A stretch of DNA of 64,000 nt from Verrucomicrobiota bacterium (GTDB lineage: Bacteria > Verrucomicrobiota > Verrucomicrobiia > Limisphaerales > CANJSG01). The stretch spans positions 15,037 through 79,036 of the forward strand of contig JBBQXJ010000007.1 in NCBI GenBank assembly GCA_038209745.1. The letters are read 5' to 3'. Each line of letters starts with the position of its first letter. The stretch's first letter is position 1. The notes beneath the pieces were generated by a model. The model was not told the DNA's origin. It saw nothing but the letters and a program-made list of their open reading frames with translations, and did not search any database. Below are positions 2,433 to 50,502 of this stretch, piece by piece. Made by a program: the position numbers and the translations under genes.

Positions 2433-3422
2433 TCAGGGCGATTCGACCACCCGGAAAAATCGCCGAGGTTCGCCGGGAACGAACGGGTCGGGCAGCGTCA
2501 GCGGGCTGCCGTTACCCGGCAGCGTAGCGCTGAGATTGGTCCACATGTCGGCGGGCAATTGCGGGGTGGACTGCACCTGGTAGGCGTGGTTCGTCCGGGA
2601 ACCCCACTGCAATTGGACGCCACCAAAGACCTTGGAAATAGTGACAAAAGCGAAACGGTCCGGCGGGAGCCTCACGAATTCCGACGGCGCCAACGCCACG
2701 TTGCTGATGCGCACCTCGTCGAGGCTGCCGTCGAAGTTTCGCCGGAACTGTCCATTGTCCTGTCCGCCGGGAAAGTTGCCCGCGCCGAGGTAGATCGGGT
2801 AGTCGGCCCATGCGACCGGCGTCGCGGCTCCGCTCCCGGATGTCTGCAGCGTGTAGTCCACGAACAACTGGACCGTGTTCGTCCCGACGGGCGAATCGTG
2901 ATGGAAGACCAGGGCCACATGATGCCAGAAGCCGTCTCCATAACGCGCGGCTGTCGCTCCCGCATACAGTCCGACATTCGGTGCATAGCTCACGAATCCG
3001 TTCAGACTGCCATTTGCACCGTATTCGATGACGAAGGAACTCAGATGACCTCCCTCAACGGGCGTATGGAGCTTGTTGATCAGTTCCGCCGGATCGCTTC
3101 CATAAACGGTATACGGCTGGTTGGCCTTGAAAAACAGTTCGACCGTAAAGTCGTTCGTCAGCACAAAGGCGGGCGAATTCGGAATGGAGCCATAGTTTCC
3201 GTCGCCGGACAGATCCAAGCCGGTGCCCAGCACGCCGGCCGAGTAGGTCGCCGAGCCGATGGTGGTGCCGTTCAGCCCGGCCGGACCGGAGTCGGTGATC
3301 TGGGCAACTGGACTTCCGTTGGTGCCGTCGAATCGATAATAGGCCACGGTCTGGGCAGTGGCGGCCAACGGAGGGAGCAACAGGGCAATTGCTGTCACGA
3401 AGCGGATCATTCTCAATTTCAT
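2433..3422 (-). CDS. Secreted LamG / concanavalin-A-like lectin domain protein
   Basis: I chose the internal start MKLRMIRFVTAIALLLPPLAATAQ, which gives a signal peptide; ATG checked at 3420-3422. Typical LamG segments are present (LDLSGDGNYGSIP, FTVELFF, WHHVALVF, FDGSLDEVRISN). Confidence 0.7.
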   Translation of the reverse strand: MKLRMIRFVTAIALLLPPLAATAQTVAYYRFDGTNGSPVAQITDSGPAGLNGTTIGSATYSAGVLGTGLDLSGDGNYGSIPNSPAFVLTNDFTVELFFKANQPYTVYGSDPAELINKLHTPVEGGHLSSFVIEYGANGSLNGFVSYAPNVGLYAGATAARYGDGFWHHVALVFHHDSPVGTNTVQLFVDYTLQTSGSGAATPVAWADYPIYLGAGNFPGGQDNGQFRRNFDGSLDEVRISNVALAPSEFVRLPPDRFAFVTISKVFGGVQLQWGSRTNHAYQVQSTPQLPADMWTNLSATLPGNGSPLTLPDPFVPGEPRRFFRVVESP

Positions 3423-3568: not shown

Positions 3569-4270
3569 TCAGTCCTTCTTCGCGCAACCCAGCCAGCGAT
3601 AGACGCCGCCGGCCAGCACCGCGCCGAGGATCGGGGCCACCCAGAAGAGCCAGAGCTGCGTGAGCGCCCAGCCACCCACGAAGATCGCCGGACCCGTGCT
3701 GCGGGCCGGATTCACCGAGGTGTTCGTCACCGGGATGCTGATGAGATGGATGAGCGTCAACCCGAGACCGATGGCGATCGGGGCGAATCCTTTCAGAGCC
3801 CGTTCATCCGTCGCGCCGAGGATGATGATCAGAAACATGAAGGTCATGACCACTTCGGTGACGAAGCCCGCGCCCATCGAATACTTGCCGGGCGAATGTT
3901 CTCCGTAGCCGTTCGAGGCGAGTCCGGCGCTGAGATCGAAGCCGGCTTTGCCGCTGGCGATGAAATACAGCACGCCCGCTCCGGCAATCGCCCCGAGCAC
4001 CTGCGAGACGATGTAGGGCAGGAGTTCCCCGGCCTTGAACCGTCCGCCGGCCACGAGACCGAAGGAGACGGCGGGATTCAGGTGGCATCCGGAGATAGGG
4101 CCGATGGCGAACGCCATGGTGAGCACCGTCAGACCGAAAGCGAACGCCACGCCCAGCAGTCCGATGCCGACACCGGGAAAGGCCGCCGCCAAGACGGCGC
4201 TGCCGCAGCCGCCGAGGGTGAGCCAGAAGGTTCCGAGGAATTCAGCGAATGCACGCTTTGATAGAGGCAT
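3569..4270 (-). CDS. aqpZ: Aquaporin Z
   Basis: 233 aa with two NPA boxes (HLNPAVS, SVNPARS). N-terminus [10 protein letters not shown] and six hydrophobic segments match the MIP family. Confidence 0.95.
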
Positions 4271-18330: not shown

Positions 18331-19605
18331 TCAAGCGCGAGCCGGCAGAACCTTCTCGATCGCGATCTTTTCGAGCACGGCATACTTCGGCAGGCCGTTT
18401 TCAGTCGGCGGAGTGACTTCGCCTTCGATCAGCGGCGCCGCGTATTCGACGAACTTCTGGTTCGGCATGAACCCATCGGCGCTGACCCAGTCGCGGGGCA
18501 GGAAACGTTCAACGTTCGCGATATCCTTGAGATCCTGCAAAGCGGTGCCGAAGTAGGTCTTCACTCCGACCGTGCGGACGATCTTCACCATGAAACCGCT
18601 CTGGCCATCGATCGCCGCGCGCACGGCGGCCTCGCCGCACTTGAACGCGATTTCTGCGTCGACGGCGCTGGCGAAGTGGGCGGCGCAGCGTTGGGCATAG
18701 CCAAGCTTCACCGTGCGGGTCTTGAGGTTGAGCTTGCCCTGGATGATCTCGGCGAGCTTGTCGGCGGCACCGGAAAGAACGGCATGTCCGAACGAGTCCA
18801 CCTTGGATTTGTCGGCTCCGATCTCCTCACCAGCGGCGTTTTTTAGGCCCTCGCCAACGACCACCACGCAATACTTCAGCTTGGCGATGGTCTCCTTCAC
18901 CTTGGCGAGGAAGGCGGCTTCGTCCAAAGCAATCTCCGGCATCAGGATGATGTGCGGGGCATTGTCGGGGTTGCCCTGCTTGGCCAGCACGGTGCCGGCC
19001 GCGATCCAACCGGCGGCGCGGCCCATGACCTCGACGATGCAACAGGAGCCGTCGTCCGTGGCCATCGATCCGACATCGAGACCGATCTCGGCGACGGTGG
19101 CGGCGTTGTATTTGATGACCGAGCCGTAGCCGGGGCAGTGGTCGGTATGGGGCAGATCGTTGTCGATCGTCTTGGGCACCCCGATCACGCGGACTTCGTA
19201 GCCGCGCTTGACGGATTCGCCATGGATCTTGTTGGACGTGTCCTGGGAATCGTTCCCGCCCGCGTAGAAAAAGTAGCGGATGTTGTGCGCCTGGAAGACC
19301 TCGAAGAGACGGTCCATGTCCTTGGCGGCCTGTTCCGGGTTCTTGGCTGGGTTGATCTTGTAGCGGCAGGTGCCGAGGGCGGCAGCCGGCGTGTAGCGGA
19401 GGCTGTCGATCGTCTTCTGCTTCTCGTCCTGCAGATCGATGATGTCTTCGTTGAGGATGCCGAAGATCCCGTTCAAACCGCCGTAGATCTCCTCGATGCA
19501 GCCATGCTTTCCTGCCTCGGCCATCACACCGGCGACGCTTGAATTGATCACCGCGGTCGGGCCACCGGATTGGGCGACAAGTAGATTTCCAACTAGTTCA
19601 GACAT
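18331..19605 (-). CDS. pfp: Pyrophosphate-dependent 6-phosphofructokinase (PPi-PFK, PfkA family)
   Basis: QSGGPTAVINSS, GGNDS (Asp at the position that is Gly in ATP-PFK GGDGS) and PKTIDNDL (Lys instead of Gly). Both are known PPi-specificity markers. Confidence 0.85.
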   Translation of the reverse strand: MSELVGNLLVAQSGGPTAVINSSVAGVMAEAGKHGCIEEIYGGLNGIFGILNEDIIDLQDEKQKTIDSLRYTPAAALGTCRYKINPAKNPEQAAKDMDRLFEVFQAHNIRYFFYAGGNDSQDTSNKIHGESVKRGYEVRVIGVPKTIDNDLPHTDHCPGYGSVIKYNAATVAEIGLDVGSMATDDGSCCIVEVMGRAAGWIAAGTVLAKQGNPDNAPHIILMPEIALDEAAFLAKVKETIAKLKYCVVVVGEGLKNAAGEEIGADKSKVDSFGHAVLSGAADKLAEIIQGKLNLKTRTVKLGYAQRCAAHFASAVDAEIAFKCGEAAVRAAIDGQSGFMVKIVRTVGVKTYFGTALQDLKDIANVERFLPRDWVSADGFMPNQKFVEYAAPLIEGEVTPPTENGLPKYAVLEKIAIEKVLPARA

Positions 19606-19824
19606 AAAAATTGTAGTTTTGGGGGCGAAGACAACCGCCCAGAGGCGGACAGATCCGCCAAATCAAGGTTCAAACTGAACGTTGAAACTGCCAACCGCCC
19701 AACGGGGTGTCAAAGATTGAATTCCGGCCAAGTGGTTATGGCTGGCGGACAACCGACCCCGCCGCGGACAACTTTGAAAAACTGCTTTCGTCACGACCGA
19801 CCATTTCTGATTCTCCCCCATCCG

Positions 19825-20925
19825 ATGAACGTTCCGTTCCTGAACCTAGCCGCTCAATACGAGGCCCTTAAATCCGACATCCTGCCCGCCGTGGAGAAGG
19901 CCCTCGCCGGTGGCCACTACATCCTCGGGCCCAATGTCGCCGCCTTCGAAAAGGAGCTGGCTGAGTTTACCGGGACCGCGTTCGCCGTCGGCGTGAATTC
20001 CGGATCGGACGCCCTGACGCTGTCGCTGCGGGCGCTCGACGTCGGCCCCGGCGACGAGGTCATCACTTCTCCTTTCACCTACATCGCCCCGGCCGAGTCG
20101 ATCATCCAGATGGGCGCGCGGCTGGTCTTCGCCGACATCGATCCCAAGACGCTTTGTCTGAATCCGAAGGACGTCGCCGAACACATCAGTCCAGCCACGA
20201 AGGCGATCATTCCCGTCCACCTCTTCGGCCAAGCCGCGCCGCTCGACGAGATCTTCGCCTTCGCCAATCCGGCCCAGATCCACATCGTCGAAGACTGCGC
20301 CCAAGCCATCGGCGCCACCCGCAACGGCCAGTCTGTCGGCTCCTTCGGCGCAACGGGCTGCTTCAGCTTCTATCCGACCAAGAACCTTGGCGCCGACGGC
20401 GACGGCGGCGCGATCGTCACCAACGACGAGGCCCTGGCCAAGAAGCTGAAGATGCTCCGCGTCCACGGCATCGAACGCCGCTACCACCACGACCTCCACG
20501 GCTTCAACTCCCGGCTGGACGAGATCCAGGCGGCCATTCTCCGGGTCAAGCTTCCGCACCTGAACCGCTGGAACGCCCGCCGTGCCGAGATCGCCGCCCG
20601 TTACGTTGAGGGTTTGAAGAACCTGCCCGTTGAAACCCCGACCACCGCCCCGGGCAACGGCCACGTCTTCCATGTCTTCCATCTGCTGAGCGAACGACGC
20701 GACGAACTGCAGAAGCATCTGGCCGATCACGGCGTGCCGACGATCATCTACTACCCCAAGCCGCTGCACCTCCAGCCATGCTACGCCGACCAGGATTGGC
20801 GCGAGGGCCAGTTCCCCGTGGCCGAGGCGATCTCGAAGAAGATCCTTCCCCTGCCGATGTATCCCGAACTGACCGACGCGCAGGTCGATCATGTGATCAA
20901 GACGATCCGCAAATTCCGATTCTGA
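19825..20925 (+). CDS. DegT/DnrJ/EryC1/StrS family sugar aminotransferase (PLP-dependent)
   Basis: Start MNVPFLNLAAQYEALK (ATG 19825). Family-typical YILGPNV..FE.E.A.F and FSFYPTKNLGA (PLP lysine) are present. Confidence 0.9.
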   Translation: MNVPFLNLAAQYEALKSDILPAVEKALAGGHYILGPNVAAFEKELAEFTGTAFAVGVNSGSDALTLSLRALDVGPGDEVITSPFTYIAPAESIIQMGARLVFADIDPKTLCLNPKDVAEHISPATKAIIPVHLFGQAAPLDEIFAFANPAQIHIVEDCAQAIGATRNGQSVGSFGATGCFSFYPTKNLGADGDGGAIVTNDEALAKKLKMLRVHGIERRYHHDLHGFNSRLDEIQAAILRVKLPHLNRWNARRAEIAARYVEGLKNLPVETPTTAPGNGHVFHVFHLLSERRDELQKHLADHGVPTIIYYPKPLHLQPCYADQDWREGQFPVAEAISKKILPLPMYPELTDAQVDHVIKTIRKFRF

Positions 20926-21034
20926 GAACCGGCCGCAAAGAGGCAGGAAAAGCGGAAAAACTGAAAGGCCCCGATGGACGAATCCACCGGGGCTCTTTCG
21001 TTGTGAATCCTGTGCCCCTTTGCGGACCAACCCT

Positions 21035-21361
21035 TCAGTTCACCGCCAGCAGCTCGACCTCGAAGATCAAGGTGGCGTTCGGCGGGATGACACCGGGATA
21101 ACCGCCGGCGCCGTAGCCCATGTTGGGCGGAATGGTCAGTTTGACCTTCTGGCCGACCTTCATCTGGGCCACGCCGACGTCCCAGCCCTGGATGACCTGG
21201 CCGACTCCGAGCACGAACTCGAAGGGCTCCTTGCGGTCCACGGAGCTGTCGAACTTGGTGCCGTCGGTCAGGGTGCCGGTGTAGTGGACAGAGACGGTCT
21301 GGCCCTTGCGGGGCGACGCGCCGGTGCCGGCGACGAGGGTTTCAGAAACGAGTTGGGACAT
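21035..21361 (-). CDS. FKBP-type peptidyl-prolyl cis-trans isomerase
   Basis: 108 aa: [18 protein letters not shown]...[36 protein letters not shown]....[14 protein letters not shown]. Confidence 0.92.
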
Positions 21362-21372
21362 GGGAGAGGGGA

Positions 21373-21675
21373 TCAGCTTTCGATGACGTTGATTTCGACG
21401 GGTTCGACGCTCACGCCGACCTTTTCCAGCCAGGCAATGATGGACTTCATGTCCGAACGCTTGCCTTCGAGTTCAAGGCAGAGAATTCCGATCTGCTCGC
21501 TGACGCTGGCCTGGCGGACGTTGAAGACGACCGGGAACTTGTGCGCCATTTCCCAGATGATCGGGCGGGTCACCAGCTTGGTCGGGTAGCTGAGCCAGAA
21601 ACGGCGGGTTTCCTTCGCGTCCGTCCGGGCGGCTTCCGGGGCGACCTTCTTCTGGGCAGTCTTCTTGGGAGGCAT
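21373..21675 (-). CDS. Stand-alone NIL-domain protein (100 aa) with a basic N-terminal tail
   Basis: Start [10 protein letters not shown] (ATG at 21673-21675). The core [70 protein letters not shown] resembles the NIL/C2 domain of MetN and NIL-ferredoxin proteins. Confidence 0.65.
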
Positions 21676-21689
21676 GAAAGTATTGGAGT

Positions 21690-21965
21690 TTAGCCGCCGG
21701 CGATCGCCGGGATGATGCTGATCTCGTCGCCGTCCTTGACCGGGGTCTGCTGGTTCTCGAGGAAGCGGATGTCCTCTTCGTTCACGTAGACGTTCACGAA
21801 GCGACGGACCTCGCCCTTCTCGTCGAGCAGGCGTTCCTTGATTCCGGGGAATTTGGACTGCAGCTCGGCCATGGCGGTGGCGACGGTGCCGGTGGCGACT
21901 TCGACGAGTTCCTGCTCGTTGGTGAGCTTGCGGAGCGGAGTTGGGATGCGGACTTTTGCGGGCAT
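21690..21965 (-). CDS. CysO/MoaD/ThiS-family sulfur-carrier protein, copy 2 (91 aa, C-terminal GG)
   Basis: MPAKVRIPTPLR...RFVNVYVNEEDIRF...DGDEISIIPAIAGG. Close to the CysO pattern (RFVNIYVN.EDVRF ... ILPAVAGG). Confidence 0.85.
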   Translation of the reverse strand: MPAKVRIPTPLRKLTNEQELVEVATGTVATAMAELQSKFPGIKERLLDEKGEVRRFVNVYVNEEDIRFLENQQTPVKDGDEISIIPAIAGG

Positions 21966-22146
21966 AAAATTGAACTGCGATTAACGGCGGGATCGTCGGC
22001 CAGTTTCCAGTGGGTGGCAACGGTCAATTCCCGGACTTCGAACCGCTATTCTGCGCTGATTTTCGACGACGCTGCCTTCAGAGAGCCTCCGCGCCACGAT
22101 ACCCTGTCTTGGCCCTGTCAAAGTTGATCGACCAAGATTGGCGGTT

Positions 22147-22180
22147 AAAAAAATCACCCTCCGGCAAACGCCGGGATGAT
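22147..22180 (-). terminator. Intrinsic terminator overlapping the 3' end and stop codon of carrier copy 1
   Basis: Minus strand: AUCAUCCCGGC-GUUU-GCCGGAGGGUGAU, a GC core of 5 bp extended by bulged pairs. It is immediately followed by U7 (plus-strand a47-a53). Confidence 0.55.
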
Positions 22181-22429
22181 GCTGACTTCGTCGCCCGGAT
22201 TGAGCGGGGTCTCTTCGTTCAGGAGGAAGCGCACGTCTTCCTCGTTCACGAAGACCAGCACGGAGCCGCGGAGCTGCCCGTGTTCGTCCATCAGCCGCTC
22301 GCGCACGCCGTGGAAGCGGCTGTGGAGCTGGTGCACCGCGCCGGCCACGGTGCCGGGCTGGACCAGAATCGTCTCCGAGCCTTCACAGTAGCGACGGAGC
22401 GTGGGTGGAATACGAATGGCGACGGACAT
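22154..22429 (-). CDS. CysO/MoaD/ThiS-family sulfur-carrier protein, copy 1 (91 aa, C-terminal GG)
   Basis: Start MSVAIRIPPTLRR (ATG at 22427-22429) ... VLVFVNEEDVRF...PGDEVSIIPAFAGG. Lies 20 nt downstream of the ThrC-like gene. Confidence 0.85.
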   Translation of the reverse strand: MSVAIRIPPTLRRYCEGSETILVQPGTVAGAVHQLHSRFHGVRERLMDEHGQLRGSVLVFVNEEDVRFLLNEETPLNPGDEVSIIPAFAGG

Positions 22430-22449
22430 GGTGGATAGCAGTTTTCGGG

Positions 22450-23703
22450 TTAGGCCGCGGCGGCCGCCTTGTCGCGTTCGAGAATCGCCTCGAACTCGCG
22501 GAGGCTGGGCCGGATCTCGCGGGTTTCGCCGACATGGCCGGTCATGGCTTCGATGGTCTTGAGACCGTTGCCGGTGATGCACAGCACGGCGGAGTCGCCG
22601 GCCGCGATCTTACCCGCCGCGATCAGCTTCTTGGCCACGCCCACGGTCACGCCGCCGGCGGTCTCGGCAAAGATGCCTTCGCATTCGGCCAGAATCCGGA
22701 TGCCTTCGCGCACTTCGTCGTCGGTCACGTCGTCGGCGTAACCGCCGGTCTCCTTCATCACCTTGAGCGCGTAGAAGCCGTCGGCCGGCGTGCCGATGGC
22801 CAGCGACTTGGCGATGGTGTTCGGCTTGACCGGCTTGAAGAAGTCGAGCCCGGCACGGTGCGCGGCGCTGATCGGATTGCAGCCCGTGGCCTGGGCGCCG
22901 TGGATGCGGCTTTCGCCGGAAACGAGGCCGAGCTTGTTCAGCTCCTGGTAGGACTTGTGGATCTTGGTCAGGAGCGAGCCGGACGCCATCGGGATGACGG
23001 TGTGCTGCGGCACCTTCCAGCCGAGCTGCTCGACGATCTCGAAGCCCATCGATTTGGAACCCTCGGCGTAATACGGCCGCATGTTCACGTTCACGAAGGC
23101 CCAGCCATACTTGCCGGCGATCTCGGCGCAGAGGCGGTTGACCTCGTCGTAGTGGCCTTTGATGCTGATGACGTTGGCGCCGTAGACGAGCGAATTGACG
23201 ACCTTGCCCAGCTCCAGATCGGAGGGAATGAAGACGTAGGCCTCCATGCCGGCGGCGGCGGCGTTGGCGGCGACGGAGTTGGCGAGGTTGCCGGTGGAGG
23301 CGCAGGCGGCGGTCTTGAAGCCGAGTTCACGGGCGCGGCTAAGGGCGACGCTGACGACGCGGTCCTTGAACGAAAGCGTGGGGTAGTTGACGGCGTCGTT
23401 CTTGATCCAGAGCTCGCGGATGCCGAGACGTTTGGCCAATCGGTCCGCTTTCACCAGAGGCGTGAACCCGACCTCGACCCCCACGGTGGGGTCACCGGCG
23501 ATGGGCAGCAGCTCGCGATAGCGCCACATGGAGTGCGGCCGGGACTGGATGGCGGCGCGGGTCATCGACTTCTTGATGCTCTCGTAGTCGTAGGCGACTT
23601 CGAGGGGACCAAAGTCGAACTCGCAGACGTGGGTGGCGGCGAGCGGGTACTCGCGGCCGCACTCGCGGCACTTCAACGCCTTCATGAATCCTTGCTGTTG
23701 CAT
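22450..23703 (-). CDS. Threonine synthase-fold PLP enzyme (ThrC family, N-terminal zinc ribbon); candidate sulfur-carrier-dependent homocysteine synthase
   Basis: Start MQQQGFMKALKCRECGREY (ATG at 23701-23703). PLP lysine context YPTLSFKDRVVS; also ACASTGN and GNGLK. The upstream part of the track ORF is really the riboswitch leader. Confidence 0.9.
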   Translation of the reverse strand: MQQQGFMKALKCRECGREYPLAATHVCEFDFGPLEVAYDYESIKKSMTRAAIQSRPHSMWRYRELLPIAGDPTVGVEVGFTPLVKADRLAKRLGIRELWIKNDAVNYPTLSFKDRVVSVALSRARELGFKTAACASTGNLANSVAANAAAAGMEAYVFIPSDLELGKVVNSLVYGANVISIKGHYDEVNRLCAEIAGKYGWAFVNVNMRPYYAEGSKSMGFEIVEQLGWKVPQHTVIPMASGSLLTKIHKSYQELNKLGLVSGESRIHGAQATGCNPISAAHRAGLDFFKPVKPNTIAKSLAIGTPADGFYALKVMKETGGYADDVTDDEVREGIRILAECEGIFAETAGGVTVGVAKKLIAAGKIAAGDSAVLCITGNGLKTIEAMTGHVGETREIRPSLREFEAILERDKAAAAA

Positions 23704-23724
23704 CGTCGTTCTTTTTTTCGGGGC

Positions 23725-23760
23725 AAAAAAAGCCCCTTCTCGTGGTGTCGGGAGAAGAGG
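23725..23760 (-). terminator. Riboswitch expression-platform terminator
   Basis: Minus strand: CCUCUUCUC-(10 nt)-GAGAAGGGG, then C and U7. The 5' arm can alternatively pair perfectly with GAGAAGAG (23775-23782), which overlaps the P1 3' strand and acts as the antiterminator. Confidence 0.8.
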
Positions 23761-23779
23761 ATGGACGGGCCGCGCTCTT

Positions 23780-23896
23780 CTCATTTTTCCCCGGTTCGGC
23801 TGCGATCCGGGCTGGATTTGGCACCTGACGCGGAACTCGCGGTTCCACCGGTTGCCGTGACGTCTTCGGGCCAGTCCCTCGGTCACTCTTAATGAG
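23780..23896 (-). promoter_or_regulatory. SAM-I (S-box) riboswitch aptamer
   Basis: Minus strand reads CUCAUUAAGAGUGACCGAGGGACUGGCCCGAAGACGUCACGGCAACC...CAGGUGCCAAAUCCAGCCCGG...CCGGGGAAAAAUGAG. P1 is CUCAUU/AAUGAG, P2 is GUGAC/GUCAC with the GAGGGA...GGCCC core, P3 is GCAACC...GGUGC, and P4 is CCCGG/CCGGG. This matches the SAM-I consensus almost base for base in the conserved cores. Confidence 0.9.
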
Positions 23897-24208
23897 ATCC
23901 ATTGCGTATATATCAACGGATACGGATTTAATGATTTAAGCCGCAAACTACGTCAACGACTTTTATGCGGATCGATGGCCTGTTCCGATCCCGTCCATGG
24001 GCGACCGGCTGTCTCCGCTCTCGATGTGCGTCTCACCGGTCGGCGTCCCGTGCCTTGGCAGTGGTGAAGTCCCTCGGCCACCGACGCCTTCTGCCGGGAC
24101 AACTCTGTCCCAGTCCCGGAAGGTGGCGCCGTTCGCCTCCGCTTTCCCTGTAGATCCACCCTCATCAGAACTTCTTCTGGCGCCGATAGATCTTGGACCG
24201 GAACGCTC

Positions 24209-25291
24209 ATGAATCATTGGGTCATCAGATTGTTCTTCTGGGGTCTTTGCACTCTGGGAGGTTTCTCCGTCAGTCAGGTCCGCCCGGAGCTGGTGCAACA
24301 GCCCGTGGTCGGAATGCTCGTTGGCTTCGGCTTCGGGGGAGTGATGGTGGCCTTCGATCTCATGCTGAAGGGCTTCTCCATCCGGGCCTTTTCGGCAGCA
24401 ACCGCCGGCATCGCCATCGGCACGGCCATGGCCTGGATGGTGGACCGGTCCGGCCTCTTCGACTTTGTGGATGAAAACCTCCGTTGGCTCATCCGGCTCG
24501 GGCTGTTCCTCGGATTCTCCTACCTCGGAATGATCGTGTCGATTCGCAGCAACAAGGAGGATTTCAGCCTGATCATCCCCTACGTCCGCTTCGCCTCCCA
24601 GTCCAAGCCCGACACCCTCCTCGTGCTCGATACCAGCGCCGTCATCGATGGACGCATCGCGGGCCTGGTCGGGGGCGACGTGGTCGAAGGACGCCTCATC
24701 GTTCCCCGCTTCGTCCTGCACGAACTGCAAAAAGTCGCCGACTCGGCCGATCCGACCAAGCGCGCCCGGGGCCAACGCGGCCTCGACATGCTCCACAAGC
24801 TCCAGTCCAGCCCCCGCACCGACGTGAAGATCCACGAGGGCGACTTTCCCCATGAATCCGCCGTCGACGCCAAGCTCGTGATGTTGGCCAAAACCCTCGG
24901 CGCCAAACTCGTCACCAACGACGCCAACCTCGTCCGCGTCGCCGTCCTCCAGTCGGTCAAGACCATCAACCTCGCCGAGTTGTCCTCCGTGCTGAAAGCC
25001 CAGATCCTGCCGGGCGACGAGGTGGAACTGCGGATCACCCGAGAAGGCCGCGAAAAAGGCCAGGGCATCGGCTACCTGACCGACGGCACCATGGTCGTCG
25101 TCACGGGCGCCCACGTCTTCATCGGTCGGAATGCCCGCGCCACCATCACGAATCTGACCCAGACCGGTGCCGGTGTGATCATGTTTGCGCAGATCGCCCA
25201 GACGGCAGAGTTTGAAGGCCAACCATGGAACTCAAAACCGTCTTCACCACCTTCAGCTCCGCCGAAGCCAATCTCGTCCGTGGCCGCCTAG
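24209..25291 (+). CDS. PIN and TRAM domain membrane protein (YacL-like)
   Basis: N-terminal TM helices, then a PIN domain (LLVLDTSAVIDGRI ... LVTNDANL). A TRAM-like C-terminus follows (GDEVELRITREGREKGQGIGYLTDGTMVVV). Confidence 0.8.
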   Translation: MNHWVIRLFFWGLCTLGGFSVSQVRPELVQQPVVGMLVGFGFGGVMVAFDLMLKGFSIRAFSAATAGIAIGTAMAWMVDRSGLFDFVDENLRWLIRLGLFLGFSYLGMIVSIRSNKEDFSLIIPYVRFASQSKPDTLLVLDTSAVIDGRIAGLVGGDVVEGRLIVPRFVLHELQKVADSADPTKRARGQRGLDMLHKLQSSPRTDVKIHEGDFPHESAVDAKLVMLAKTLGAKLVTNDANLVRVAVLQSVKTINLAELSSVLKAQILPGDEVELRITREGREKGQGIGYLTDGTMVVVTGAHVFIGRNARATITNLTQTGAGVIMFAQIAQTAEFEGQPWNSKPSSPPSAPPKPISSVAA

Positions 25292-25479
25292 AGGCGGCCG
25301 GCTTCGAGGCCTACATCCAGGGTGAACTGGCCTCGATCAGCATCGGGGCCTCCACCGCCGCCACCGGCGGCATCCGCATCCAAGTCCCAGAAGATCGCGC
25401 GGCGGAAGCCCGCGCCGTGATCGAGTCCGACCTCAGCCAACCCTCCGGAGAGACCGACGAAGGAACCACGGTTTCGTAG
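25225..25479 (+). CDS. DUF2007-type putative signal-transducing protein (84 aa)
   Basis: MELKTVFTTFSSAEANLVRGRLEAAGFEAYIQGE...IRIQVPEDRAAEARAVI is the family pattern. It overlaps the low-complexity tail of the upstream gene by 67 nt. Confidence 0.65.
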   Translation: MELKTVFTTFSSAEANLVRGRLEAAGFEAYIQGELASISIGASTAATGGIRIQVPEDRAAEARAVIESDLSQPSGETDEGTTVS

Positions 25480-25683
25480 CGGCAGAAGGGAGCCGGCCGC
25501 CATCGCGCTCCAGCGCCCGGTCTTGTCGATCAATGTCGCCCGCCGGATTGGCGTTCCCAGCGGAACGCCGAGACTATCCGCCCGGGATTGGCCGAAGGGA
25601 GCCCGCGGTTGGAGCCTCCAAGCCCACCTGCCGTGGCCTTTCCCATTCTCACCGTTCGCCAGACCTGCTAGACCCACCCGCCC

Positions 25684-28481: not shown

Positions 28482-29612
28482 TCACTCCTTCATCTTCTCC
28501 GGATCCAATCCCACGTTCTGGCACCAGGCGCGGTAGGCGAAGGGGGAGATTTCGCTGGGCTTGATCTCGCTGCGGCCGCCCCAGAAAACGTTGGTGTAAC
28601 CAAGCGGGATGCCGGCTTCGACGAGGTGTTTATCGATGGCGGCCTTGTTCGCGAGCACGACGGGCTTCTCCGTGCCGTGGGCCACGCCCATGACGTTGAC
28701 GTTCTTGAACTCGGGGCCGCCCTCGCGCCAGTAGGCGTGGGTCATGCAGAAGTGGCGGGCGACTTCGCGGCCGGCCTCGATCTCGCGACCAGGCGGCACG
28801 GCCCAGTGGAAGAGCGCGTTGAACCGGGTCACGCGTTCGCCGTCGGCCAGCGTCTTCACGTGTTCGAGGAAGGTGCTGAAGCGGCCGATGACCTTCCGGT
28901 TGTTCAGGTCCTCCGCGACTTCACAGAAGGTTTCCAGCGGCATGCCGGCTTCCTCGGCCCGGGCGCGCCAGAGATCAGGAATGAGTTCACCGACCTCGAA
29001 TTCGCGCTTCAAAGCGGTGAGCACGCGCCACTCCAATTCATTCAACTGCACGACGGAGACATCGGTGACTTCGCCGAGCACGTCGGCCCGCGCACCGGGT
29101 TCGAGGCCGCGACGGCGGATGTGGCCGACGCCGAGGGCGAAGAGGCGTTTGGCCGGCATGAGGCGGAAGTGTTTTGCGCCGATCTTCTCGAGCAGGAATT
29201 CGCAGTGCCGCTCCATCGAATAGCCCTGCGGGACTTTCACCGTGGTCCAGAGCTTGTATTGCGAGCCGGGCGTTTCGGCGTCGGTCGAGCGGGTGACGAC
29301 GTGGCCGGAGAACGGATCCTCTTCGAAGAGATAGTTGAACGCGGCGTCTAGCTTCTCCTGCGGCACTTCCCAGGCGACGAGCGAGCCTTTGGCCAAGTTC
29401 GTGGCGAGCAGGGTCTGGCGGACGCGGCGAATGACACCCTTCTCCAACATGGCGCGGATGCGTTCGATTACGGTGTCGAGGGGCACGCCGGACAGGCGGC
29501 TGATTTCGCCGAGCGGATCGCGCTGGAAGCCCTGGATGCGATCCTCGGAGACGGCAAGGATCTGGGAGTTGACCGGGTCGCTGATACTGAAGGGCACTTC
29601 CGTCGTGTTCAT
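28482..29612 (-). CDS. Tandem Lrp/AsnC-like modules, siroheme decarboxylase (AhbA/AhbB, NirDL)-like fusion (tentative)
   Basis: Two repeats, each an HTH segment plus an effector-like domain. Features include ..EKGVIRRVRQTL... and ..NNRKVIGRFSTFL.., VTHAYWR-like MTHAYWREG, and RLFALGVG. Confidence 0.45.
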   Translation of the reverse strand: MNTTEVPFSISDPVNSQILAVSEDRIQGFQRDPLGEISRLSGVPLDTVIERIRAMLEKGVIRRVRQTLLATNLAKGSLVAWEVPQEKLDAAFNYLFEEDPFSGHVVTRSTDAETPGSQYKLWTTVKVPQGYSMERHCEFLLEKIGAKHFRLMPAKRLFALGVGHIRRRGLEPGARADVLGEVTDVSVVQLNELEWRVLTALKREFEVGELIPDLWRARAEEAGMPLETFCEVAEDLNNRKVIGRFSTFLEHVKTLADGERVTRFNALFHWAVPPGREIEAGREVARHFCMTHAYWREGGPEFKNVNVMGVAHGTEKPVVLANKAAIDKHLVEAGIPLGYTNVFWGGRSEIKPSEISPFAYRAWCQNVGLDPEKMKE

Positions 29613-49827: not shown

Positions 49828-50502
49828 CTACGGAAGCCGTCGTCGAAACTCCCCGCAGGCCGCCGCAATGTCCTTCGCGTTCAGGATCGCCGAGACCACG
49901 CAGATCCGTTTCGCACCGGCTTCCAGCACGGAGTCCAGATTCTCCAGCGTGATGCCGCCGATGGCCCACCAGGGAACCGCCACGTTCGCAGCGGCCCAGC
50001 GCACATACTCCAACGTCACCGGCTTCGCGTCCGGCTTTGTGCCGGTGGGAAACACCGGGCCGATGGCGATGTAGTCGGCACCGGCCGCGACGGCGCGCAG
50101 GGCTTGGGCGGAAGCATGGGTGGAGAGGCCGATTTCTGGGAATGGATACCTGATACCTGATACCTGATTCCCGATACCGGATACCGGATGCAGGAGCTGG
50201 TCTGTGTGGGTGAAGCCGGCGTCGAAGAAGTCTTCCTGGCCGAGATGGCAGGCCGGTGCGCCGAGGGCTTGGGCGACATCAAGATGGTCGTTGATGACCA
50301 ACCGGACGCCGGCGGCGGCGGCGATGGGCAGGAGCTTCTCCGCGACGCCGCGCACCCAGTCGGCCGATTCGTGCTTGGCGCGGAGCTGGACCAGGTCGGC
50401 GCCGCCATCGCACAGCTCGCGGCAGACCACTTCCGGAGTGCGTCCGTGGAGATAGGCCGTGTCCACGAATCCGTAGAGGCGGCAGTCGGCGAGAGGTTTC
50501 AT
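49828..50502 (-). CDS. thiE: Thiamine-phosphate synthase
   Basis: LYGFVD..., GGADLVQLRAK, RLVINDHLDVA, HLGQED, GLSTH, YIAIGPVFPTGTK, IGGI. It carries an extra ~14-aa loop encoded by a heptamer repeat. Confidence 0.9.
   Translation of the reverse strand: MKPLADCRLYGFVDTAYLHGRTPEVVCRELCDGGADLVQLRAKHESADWVRGVAEKLLPIAAAAGVRLVINDHLDVAQALGAPACHLGQEDFFDAGFTHTDQLLHPVSGIGNQVSGIRYPFPEIGLSTHASAQALRAVAAGADYIAIGPVFPTGTKPDAKPVTLEYVRWAAANVAVPWWAIGGITLENLDSVLEAGAKRICVVSAILNAKDIAAACGEFRRRLP
50146..50187. repeat. Heptanucleotide tandem repeat, 6 units, inside thiE
   Basis: Plus strand: ATACCTG ATACCTG ATACCTG ATTCCCG ATACCGG ATACCGG, 42 nt. It encodes PVSGIGNQVSGIRY on the minus strand. Confidence 0.9.

Follow-up and report, generated by a model that had tools for sequence, protein, structure and literature searches.

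A stand-alone NIL-domain protein accompanies a predicted MetM/MetO-type homocysteine pathway in Verrucomicrobiota

In a 64,000-nucleotide stretch of a Verrucomicrobiota genome (GenBank assembly GCA_038209745.1, contig JBBQXJ010000007.1, positions 15,037 to 79,036; hereafter the window), a gene for a 100-residue NIL-domain protein lies between genes for a ThiS/MoaD-type carrier protein and an FKBP-type peptidyl-prolyl isomerase. We propose, with a probability of roughly 55%, that this region is the Verrucomicrobiota form of the MetM/MetO pathway of homocysteine synthesis, that the NIL protein is a methionine-sensing regulatory partner of this pathway, that the 188-nt spacer upstream of the NIL-adjacent carrier marks the junction of two transcription units, and that the FKBP is a passenger. 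The elements follow one another on the minus strand in the order S-adenosylmethionine (SAM)-I riboswitch, MetM-like gene, carrier 1, spacer, carrier 2, NIL, FKBP and a terminator-like hairpin, with gaps of 14 nt between carrier 2 and NIL and 11 nt between NIL and FKBP. All of the positions that a first-pass annotation of this DNA had given for its elements were confirmed on this strand (Table 1).

Hasebe et al. 2024 (Appl Environ Microbiol 90:e01247-24; as cited in bioRxiv 10.1101/2024.10.14.618325, PMC12172450) described the MetM/MetO route in Streptomyces albulus, where the thiocarboxylate of the carrier MetO reacts with O-phosphohomoserine to give homocysteine. A SAM riboswitch is found upstream of metM (PMC12172450). 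The GapMind 2026 preprint lists MetO, the JAMM protein Mec, the E1 protein MoeZ and MetM as the components of the pathway, with no NIL protein, and remarks that annotations often call MetM a threonine synthase. The window resembles this system in that a pyridoxal phosphate (PLP) enzyme homologous to ThrC, with an N-terminal zinc-ribbon-like segment, adjoins a ThiS/MoaD-type carrier behind a SAM riboswitch. From this context we infer that the PLP enzyme is a carrier-thiocarboxylate-dependent homocysteine synthase, the evidence being the riboswitch, the adjacent carrier and the presence of a separate ThrC in a related locus (L086). The gene order in that locus is MetM, ThiS, NIL, homoserine dehydrogenase and a second PALP gene, and the shorter second PALP gene beside homoserine dehydrogenase is presumably the true ThrC. 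The window differs from the described system in having a stand-alone NIL protein as a conserved third member, in the two carriers of one lineage, which already end in GG, and in the lack of an E1 or JAMM gene among the window open reading frames (ORFs) tested.

The conservation of this neighbourhood was assessed in two sets of loci. A profile of 20 NIL homologues yielded 80 genome loci of at least 550 relatives, nearly all of them Verrucomicrobiota, onto which the five window proteins were mapped, with counts restricted to loci that had room for the neighbour in question. To avoid circularity, 80 metagenome loci were anchored independently on the carrier. In the NIL-anchored set, 70 of 76 loci have a carrier immediately upstream of NIL, with a median gap of 13 nt, MetM lies within 1.2 kb of NIL in 48 of 62, and a second carrier occurs in just 17 of 80. 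In the carrier-anchored set, 56 of 62 loci have NIL downstream of the carrier, and 41 of 44 have MetM upstream of it. The carrier–NIL adjacency singled out in the first-pass annotation is therefore a conserved feature of the relatives, the nearest of which are Verrucomicrobiota metagenome-assembled genomes, in agreement with its guess of a Planctomycetes–Verrucomicrobia–Chlamydiae (PVC) origin. A SAM-I riboswitch precedes MetM in all 12 related loci tested, and likewise in L174, L171 and L089. The evolutionarily conserved core thus consists of the SAM riboswitch, MetM, one carrier and NIL. The arrangement is not confined to the PVC group: in Chloroflexota (L174-L177) the order is SAM-I riboswitch, MetM, NIL (80 aa), ThiS and ThiF, and the family of 80-aa NIL proteins of this type has 3283 members at E<=1e-5. 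The link between NIL and the MetM/carrier system has been kept in two phyla at least, with differing gene orders. Free-standing carrier–NIL pairs without MetM also occur (L018, L021, L023, L029, L037 and others). In one locus (L054:470-6276), 3.9 kb separates MetM from the carrier–NIL pair, and this stretch, in which lie two short fragments resembling a carrier (3056-3139 and 3847-3939, 68% identity), may be an insertion or rearrangement within the operon.

The NIL match (residues 28-91) is the sole Pfam family in the 100-residue protein, which has one cysteine and no Fer4-type Pfam match, so the earlier reading of a NIL domain without a ferredoxin part stands. Public labels attached to the 100-aa NIL proteins include 'ABC-type methionine transport system ATPase subunit', 'L-aspartate semialdehyde sulfurtransferase ferredoxin' and 'arsenate reductase-like glutaredoxin'; none of them fits a NIL-domain-only protein, and the proteins are mislabelled. 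The NIL family profile matches the isolated C2 domain of Escherichia coli MetN (3dhx, E=4.9e-7). An AlphaFold2 (AF2) model of the window protein (predicted local distance difference test score, pLDDT, 72.7) has the topology beta-alpha-beta-beta-alpha-beta, and its best Foldseek matches are MetN C2 domains (3tuz_H, 3tui_D and 3dhw_C) with TM scores of 0.64-0.67, root-mean-square deviations of 1.2-2.3 Å and 26-29% identity. In the profile alignment, Asn52, which is invariant in the 20 Verrucomicrobiota homologues, corresponds to Asn295 of MetN, and the near-invariant Ala56 corresponds to Ala299. In MetN, Asn295 forms a hydrogen bond with bound L-methionine and binding is undetectable in the N295A variant, while Ala299 is located on the dimer-interface strand, which shifts register upon binding (PMC6233128). 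This strand is conserved in the NIL protein as it is in MetN C2.

The likeness to the C2 domain of the E. coli importer MetNI (PDB 3DHW, 3TUI, 3TUZ and 6CVL) therefore extends over the fold, the methionine-contacting asparagine and the dimer-interface strand. The window protein differs from it in being stand-alone rather than fused to an ATPase, in having biosynthetic genomic partners (MetM and the carrier) rather than a transporter, and in carrying a basic N-terminal and an invariant C-terminal extra tail. The N-terminal tail (residues 1-25) is poorly conserved and specific to Verrucomicrobiota, the Chloroflexota forms being 80 aa long. An exaggerated form of it is seen in a 161-aa homologue (P0152), in which the NIL domain follows an N-terminal tail of ~80 residues, rich in Lys and Ala and resembling histone H1. 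The last 11 residues (window 21373-21405) are invariant in the 20 Verrucomicrobiota homologues, and distant ones have the similar form VEPIExxVVEG; they reach beyond the point where MetN C2 ends, with pLDDT <50 at residues 96-100.

Table 1. Features of the NIL locus and of the riboswitch–MetM unit upstream of it (window coordinates)
Feature	Coordinates	Strand	Support or remark
SAM-I riboswitch aptamer, operon head	23778..23898	(-)	Rfam RF00162, 75.7 bits, E=5.4e-17
Possible terminator-type expression platform (tentative)	23725..23760	(-)	hairpin(s) + U7 between aptamer and MetM start
MetM-like ThrC homologue, PLP enzyme, 417 aa	22450..23703	(-)	PALP E=2.5e-66; thrC TIGR00260 274.8 bits
Carrier 1, ThiS/MoaD-type, 91 aa, ends AFAGG	22154..22429	(-)	PF02597 48.6 bits
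Intergenic spacer, 188 nt	21966..22153	(-)	between carrier 1 and carrier 2
Promoter-like motif TTGCCA (22020-22015)-N17-GACGAT (21997-21992)	21992..22020	(-)	55 nt upstream of carrier-2 ATG
Carrier 2, ThiS/MoaD-type, 91 aa, ends AIAGG	21690..21965	(-)	PF02597 66.3 bits, cutoff 22.5
Stand-alone NIL-domain protein, 100 aa	21373..21675	(-)	PF09383 E=1.6e-12, 47.6 bits, cutoff 24
FKBP-type peptidyl-prolyl isomerase, 108 aa	21035..21361	(-)	PF00254 E=1.8e-39
Terminator-like GC-rich hairpin + T-rich tail	20968..20993	(-)	terminator scan: 11-pair stem, 8 GC pairs

An ungapped alignment of the two window carriers has 48 identities in 91 positions (BLASTP E=2e-35), exactly as had been counted by hand. 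Carrier 2 reaches 50.8 bits against the moaD_arch model TIGR01687 (cutoff 49.5) and ends in IIPAIAGG-stop with a free Gly-Gly; carrier 1 likewise ends in GG, and an AGG end is shared by 89 of 91 related carriers. In comparison with the closest other species (L001), the codon differences of both carriers are mostly synonymous (16 synonymous and 11 non-synonymous for carrier 1), and from these features both carriers look functional. In a neighbour-joining tree of 91 carriers, all NIL-adjacent carriers, window carrier 2 included, fall in one tight clade that spans single-carrier loci, the downstream copies of two-carrier loci and the free-standing carrier–NIL pairs. The MetM-adjacent extra copies, among them window carrier 1, form at least two groups with long branches outside this clade and are distinguished by RGSVLVFVN and PAFAGG where the NIL-adjacent carriers have RRFVNVYVN and PAIAGG. 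Carrier-2-type proteins share 73-85% identity across most loci and less in the most divergent ones, and in 45 single-carrier loci a protein of this type is the sole carrier beside MetM. A scan of metagenomes by means of a carrier-1 profile, which was aimed at units of MetM and a carrier-1-type protein without NIL and which supplied the carrier-anchored set, yielded for the most part loci of the carrier-2 type (<=62% identity to carrier 1). Because the NIL-adjacent copies form a tight clade and the extra copies lie on long branches, carrier 2 is, as judged from the tree, the ancestral and conserved MetO orthologue and carrier 1 a derived, lineage-specific paralogue. Calling carrier 2 the "second" carrier, as had been done from its position, reverses this relationship.

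The spacer between the two carriers had been described as unexplained, with no recognisable riboswitch fold, and this absence was borne out. A search of Rfam at E<=1 over 19500-25500 returned SAM-I alone, with no match in the spacer, by which a known riboswitch was rejected. A structured RNA was rejected as well: the spacer folds less stably than its shuffled versions (minimum free energy -60.6 vs a shuffle mean of -69.7, z=+1.85), and RNAalifold on 13 homologous upstream regions gave 0 consensus pairs. An origin as the remnant of a duplicated flank or as a repeat of the window found no significant blastn match, and the spacer matched solely near-identical strains (97%). In L001, where the flanking genes are 88-93% identical at the protein level, the spacer is 147 nt long and can be aligned with that of the window solely over ~70 nt next to carrier 2. 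The question of conservation raised by the first-pass annotation thus has a divided answer, in that the part near carrier 2 is conserved and the distal ~130 nt is not, being replaced in L001 by unrelated GA/CT-rich sequence. Where the window sequence is unrelated, a long CT-rich/GA-rich inverted repeat (GTCTTCCTCCTCCTC...GAGGAGGAAGAC) is present in L001 at 510-600. At the other end of the window spacer, a run of seven T (U7 in RNA; 22147-22153) stands right after the carrier-1 stop codon, 7 nt past a 5-bp GC hairpin that the PAFAGG codons form; this site, which falls short of a terminator by the criteria applied and is missing from L001, could act in weak pausing or termination.

The conserved proximal part of the spacer carries the motif TTGCCA-N17-GACGAT. 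Its generalised form, TTGCNN-N17-NANNNT, is found 38-55 nt upstream of the start codon both in the window and in five of the related (group-A-type) two-carrier loci, and also in 8 of 10 free-standing carrier–NIL loci behind a divergently oriented gene. Among the 45 single-carrier loci, where the carrier closely follows MetM (4-50 nt), it occurs once, within coding sequence. A pattern with a 20-nt gap and the same information content turns up by chance only ~16 times per 128 kb when the window sequence is shuffled. In the aligned upstream regions the conservation extends to AAYTC...C..TTGC. The free-standing carrier–NIL units, which have no riboswitch, must have their own promoter because the upstream gene is divergent. 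On this sequence evidence, the proximal spacer is most likely an internal promoter and, given the extended conservation, possibly contains an operator. The TTGACA hexamer to which attention had been drawn is real (22122-22117), but it was rejected as a promoter, with no acceptable -10 element at 16-18 nt and no conservation in L001; what is conserved is another motif, 55 nt upstream of carrier 2. We conclude that the spacer is a rapidly evolving junction of two transcription units that abut here, not an RNA element.

An alternative is that the spacer is functionless junk and that carrier 2, NIL and FKBP are expressed solely by read-through from the riboswitch promoter. The unconserved distal spacer and the weak -10 element of the motif are consistent with this, as is the result of the terminator scan, which found no terminator-like site between carrier 1 and carrier 2; the sole terminator-like hairpin found on the minus strand lies downstream of FKBP (20993-20968). 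We nevertheless regard read-through as the only source of expression as unlikely, if still a serious alternative, in view of the recurrence of TTGC-N17-NANNNT at a fixed distance upstream of carrier–NIL, including the stand-alone units that need their own promoter, and its near absence where the carrier follows MetM by 4-50 nt. Since there is no terminator-like site between the carriers, read-through probably contributes too, and transcription of carrier 2, NIL and FKBP would combine read-through with the internal promoter. At the head of the operon, the region between the aptamer and the MetM start folds into two alternative small hairpins flanking a U7 run (z=-1.68); the terminator scan made no call there because the first hairpin has a 10-nt loop.

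Further evidence on the role of NIL comes from natural fusions, which were collected in an exhaustive profile search (954 cluster representatives at E<=1e-3). Four proteins are carrier–linker–NIL fusions in which the internal AIAGG is intact (P0163, P0166, P0179 and P0187). Of these, P0163 is encoded between TusA and a Prok-JAB gene, and P0179 downstream of a SAM riboswitch and a 424-aa PALP gene. Two further proteins fuse a JAMM domain with the motif HSHPNH to NIL: P0200 is followed by an APS-kinase-like gene, and P0259 is encoded near a PAPS reductase and a ThiS gene. It should be noted that P0220, P0135 and P0200 are on very short contigs and have only partial neighbours. Seven proteins of 164-193 aa are tandem NIL–NIL proteins (P0136, P0139, P0140, P0146, P0148, P0149 and P0199), which suggests a covalent version of a C2-like dimer, with the dimer as the working unit. 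In one carrier-anchored locus (L166:4351-4809), two successive NIL matches follow MetM and a carrier. The carrier and JAMM fusions suggest that the target of NIL is the carrier cycle (the carrier, JAMM or E1) rather than MetM alone. In the AF2 model of a natural carrier–NIL fusion (predicted template modelling score 0.49), both domains are well folded and are joined by a disordered linker that contains the GG, which as a model fits cleavage of the fusion.

The same fusions can be read in another way, with NIL as a ligand-independent structural adaptor or chaperone of the carrier and not as a feedback sensor. Such an adaptor might dock the carrier to MetM, E1 or JAMM, shield the thiocarboxylate, or bind a carrier-homocysteine adduct by its homocysteine moiety and present it to a JAMM hydrolase. 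The fusion partners are indeed the carrier and JAMM, not MetM; free-standing carrier–NIL bicistrons persist without MetM; and the invariant C-terminal tail has no counterpart in MetN C2. An adaptor does not account, however, for the conservation of the methionine-contacting asparagine and the dimer-interface strand, or for tandem proteins that mimic the ligand-binding C2 dimer. The AF2 model of the fusion has no defined carrier–NIL interface, and the window carriers need no processing because they already end in GG. We consider a purely structural role improbable on this balance.

Under the regulatory assignment that we favour, MetM would make homocysteine from O-phosphohomoserine using the C-terminal thiocarboxylate of the ThiS/MoaD-type carrier MetO, and SAM would switch the operon off through the SAM-I riboswitch. 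Carrier 1, a later and faster-evolving paralogue, would have taken the MetM-adjacent slot in one lineage, leaving in that lineage a carrier-2/NIL unit with its own promoter-like motif, which in sister genomes stands apart from MetM. The NIL protein, as the stand-alone counterpart of MetN C2, would dimerise and bind L-methionine, or an analogue such as homocysteine, across the interface, and the ligand-bound form would act on the carrier cycle, that is, on the carrier, its E1, the JAMM hydrolase or MetM. In this way NIL would provide end-product feedback at the protein level, additional to the SAM riboswitch and parallel to the trans-inhibition of MetNI and to the methionine regulation proposed for L-ASST (L-aspartate semialdehyde sulfurtransferase) via its NIL domain. 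A bolder form of the proposal, which we put forward tentatively, is that MetM/MetO systems in at least two phyla, Verrucomicrobiota and Chloroflexota, have in stand-alone NIL proteins a third subunit, near-obligatory and so far unrecognised, which constitutes a methionine-operated switch on a ubiquitin-like carrier cycle. This switch might gate E1 charging, or the carrier's release or maturation as catalysed by JAMM, and would explain the carrier–NIL and JAMM–NIL fusions.

Several observations weigh against the regulatory assignment. The residue equivalent to Asn295 is mostly Asn in distant stand-alone NIL proteins and is Asp in at least two of them. The AF2 model of the carrier–NIL fusion shows no confident inter-domain packing and gives no support for a fixed carrier–NIL interface. 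No match to E1 or JAMM was found among the ten ambiguous window ORFs that were scanned. The promoter-like motif, whose -10 element is weak, was not called by a sigma-70 consensus scan. A few genomes have NIL without an adjacent carrier or MetM (L011, L015, L016, L017 and L076), and therefore NIL need not act solely in the MetM/carrier system. The ligand and target of NIL are derived from homology and context, and the activities of the promoter and of MetM are predictions from sequence. The lone NIL genes (L011:3492-4094; L015:5839-6240; also L016, L017 and L076) are divergent from a pair encoding an extracytoplasmic function (ECF) sigma factor and a putative anti-sigma factor; in L015, the lone NIL is followed by a LolD-like ABC ATPase and a permease.

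It is also conceivable that carrier 2, NIL and FKBP form a separate system unrelated to methionine, such as a SAMP/Urm1-like system of protein modification or a sulfur carrier for molybdenum cofactor or thiamine. Carrier 2 is just at the cutoff of the NCBIfam SAMP1 model (60.3 vs 60 bits), it has its own promoter-like motif, and the free-standing carrier–NIL units lack a riboswitch. In most genomes, however, the carrier-2-type protein is the sole carrier beside MetM and stands under the SAM riboswitch; the fusion and Chloroflexota contexts are again MetM/SAM-riboswitch operons, and the FKBP adjacency is not conserved. We hold a separate system to be quite improbable. Two observations touch on thiamine. 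An ORF on the minus strand (49828-50502) begins like ThiE (thiamine-phosphate synthase), as judged by eye, and a TMP-TENI gene (L174:7652-8329) adjoins ThiF in the Chloroflexota MetM–NIL–ThiS–ThiF locus; these are hints that the E1 or the carrier may be shared with thiamine synthesis.

The NIL domain has been treated as a methionine-binding allosteric module in L-ASST, a methanogen homocysteine enzyme (PMC12068725), and the NIL-ferredoxin of this system (MA1822 / DvMF_0262) resembles the window protein in placing a NIL domain, a proposed methionine regulator, on a homocysteine-forming system (PMC12068725, PMC5764234). The two differ in that the window NIL has no ferredoxin domain and in the chemistry, which is based here on a protein thiocarboxylate and O-phosphohomoserine and there on the reductive sulfuration of aspartate semialdehyde. 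With one cysteine and no ferredoxin domain, the identity of the window protein with the NIL-ferredoxin of L-ASST was rejected. No DUF39/COG1900 entry is listed in the Pfam-annotated loci, including L081 and L082, although the DUF39 model was not searched directly; the Pfam neighbours in these two loci are PALP, ThiS, FKBP, DegT, PFK and others. A persulfide relay via Cys66, as a candidate mechanism, was weakened by the lineage specificity of this residue. The lead of the first-pass annotation, that NIL acts directly in sulfur transfer or redox chemistry as proposed for the DUF39/L-ASST NIL-ferredoxin, is very improbable: many homologues carry the JGI label 'L-aspartate semialdehyde sulfurtransferase ferredoxin', genetic evidence shows that Desulfovibrio and Methanosarcina need NIL-ferredoxin to make homocysteine (PMC5764234), and Cys66 is near-invariant in the Verrucomicrobiota subfamily, but the window protein has PF09383 matches alone in its 100 aa, Cys66 is not conserved in Chloroflexota and other stand-alone NIL proteins, and the partner in the neighbourhood of L081 and L082 is a ThrC-like PLP enzyme with no DUF39-type gene.

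Protein-thiocarboxylate amino-acid synthesis is also represented by CysO/CysM/Mec of Mycobacterium tuberculosis and HcyS/MetY/HcyD/HcyF of Wolinella. The window is like these systems in having a GG-terminated ThiS/MoaD-type carrier beside a PLP-dependent sulfhydrylase, with JAMM and E1 in the related loci L088 and L174, and differs from them in that its PLP enzyme belongs to another, ThrC-like family, in the additional NIL partner, and in its control by a SAM riboswitch, which points to methionine and not cysteine. The theme of sulfur and methionine recognised in the first pass was right, and the O-phosphohomoserine pathway of MetM/MetO fits it better than either the CysO/cysteine or the methanogen NIL-ferredoxin/DUF39 frame in which it had been cast.

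The FKBP, which had been counted as part of the carrier/NIL unit, does not belong to the conserved system. Besides the loci of the window species itself (L081-L084), an FKBP gene lies downstream of NIL in 1 of 77 loci, that of L001, and the gene that follows NIL varies among loci (HU-like, homoserine dehydrogenase, ABC ATPase and others). A role for it as a system member was rejected on this count, and it looks like a species-specific, incidental passenger. Elsewhere in the window, a gene at 28482-29612 on the minus strand encodes a 376-aa protein with AsnC-type ligand-binding and NirDL-like helix-turn-helix domains, which resembles siroheme decarboxylase of the alternative haem pathway and is unrelated to the NIL locus.

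A literature search on 'NIL domain' found no report linking NIL to ThiS/MoaD carriers or to MetM, and the classic survey of prokaryotic ubiquitin-like systems makes no mention of NIL; within the literature searched, the NIL partner of the MetM/MetO pathway appears to be undescribed. The finding is that a pathway and a domain, each already known, form a partnership that is new and conserved; the FKBP and the larger part of the spacer are unremarkable. MetM/MetO was described only in 2024 and is now entering pathway-prediction tools with four components. If NIL is a true member of the pathway, it is a fifth, small and easily overlooked component, without which reconstitution and annotation are incomplete. 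The pathway would then be under two-layer control by a SAM riboswitch and a methionine-sensing protein, the latter representing a new feedback mechanism, acting at the protein level, for a sulfur-carrier pathway. The prediction is specific and cheap to test, the materials being only the 100-aa protein and its N52A point mutant. Three systems with no other relation to one another, namely the MetNI importer, the DUF39/L-ASST enzyme and MetM/MetO, would be linked by a portable NIL module that senses methionine.

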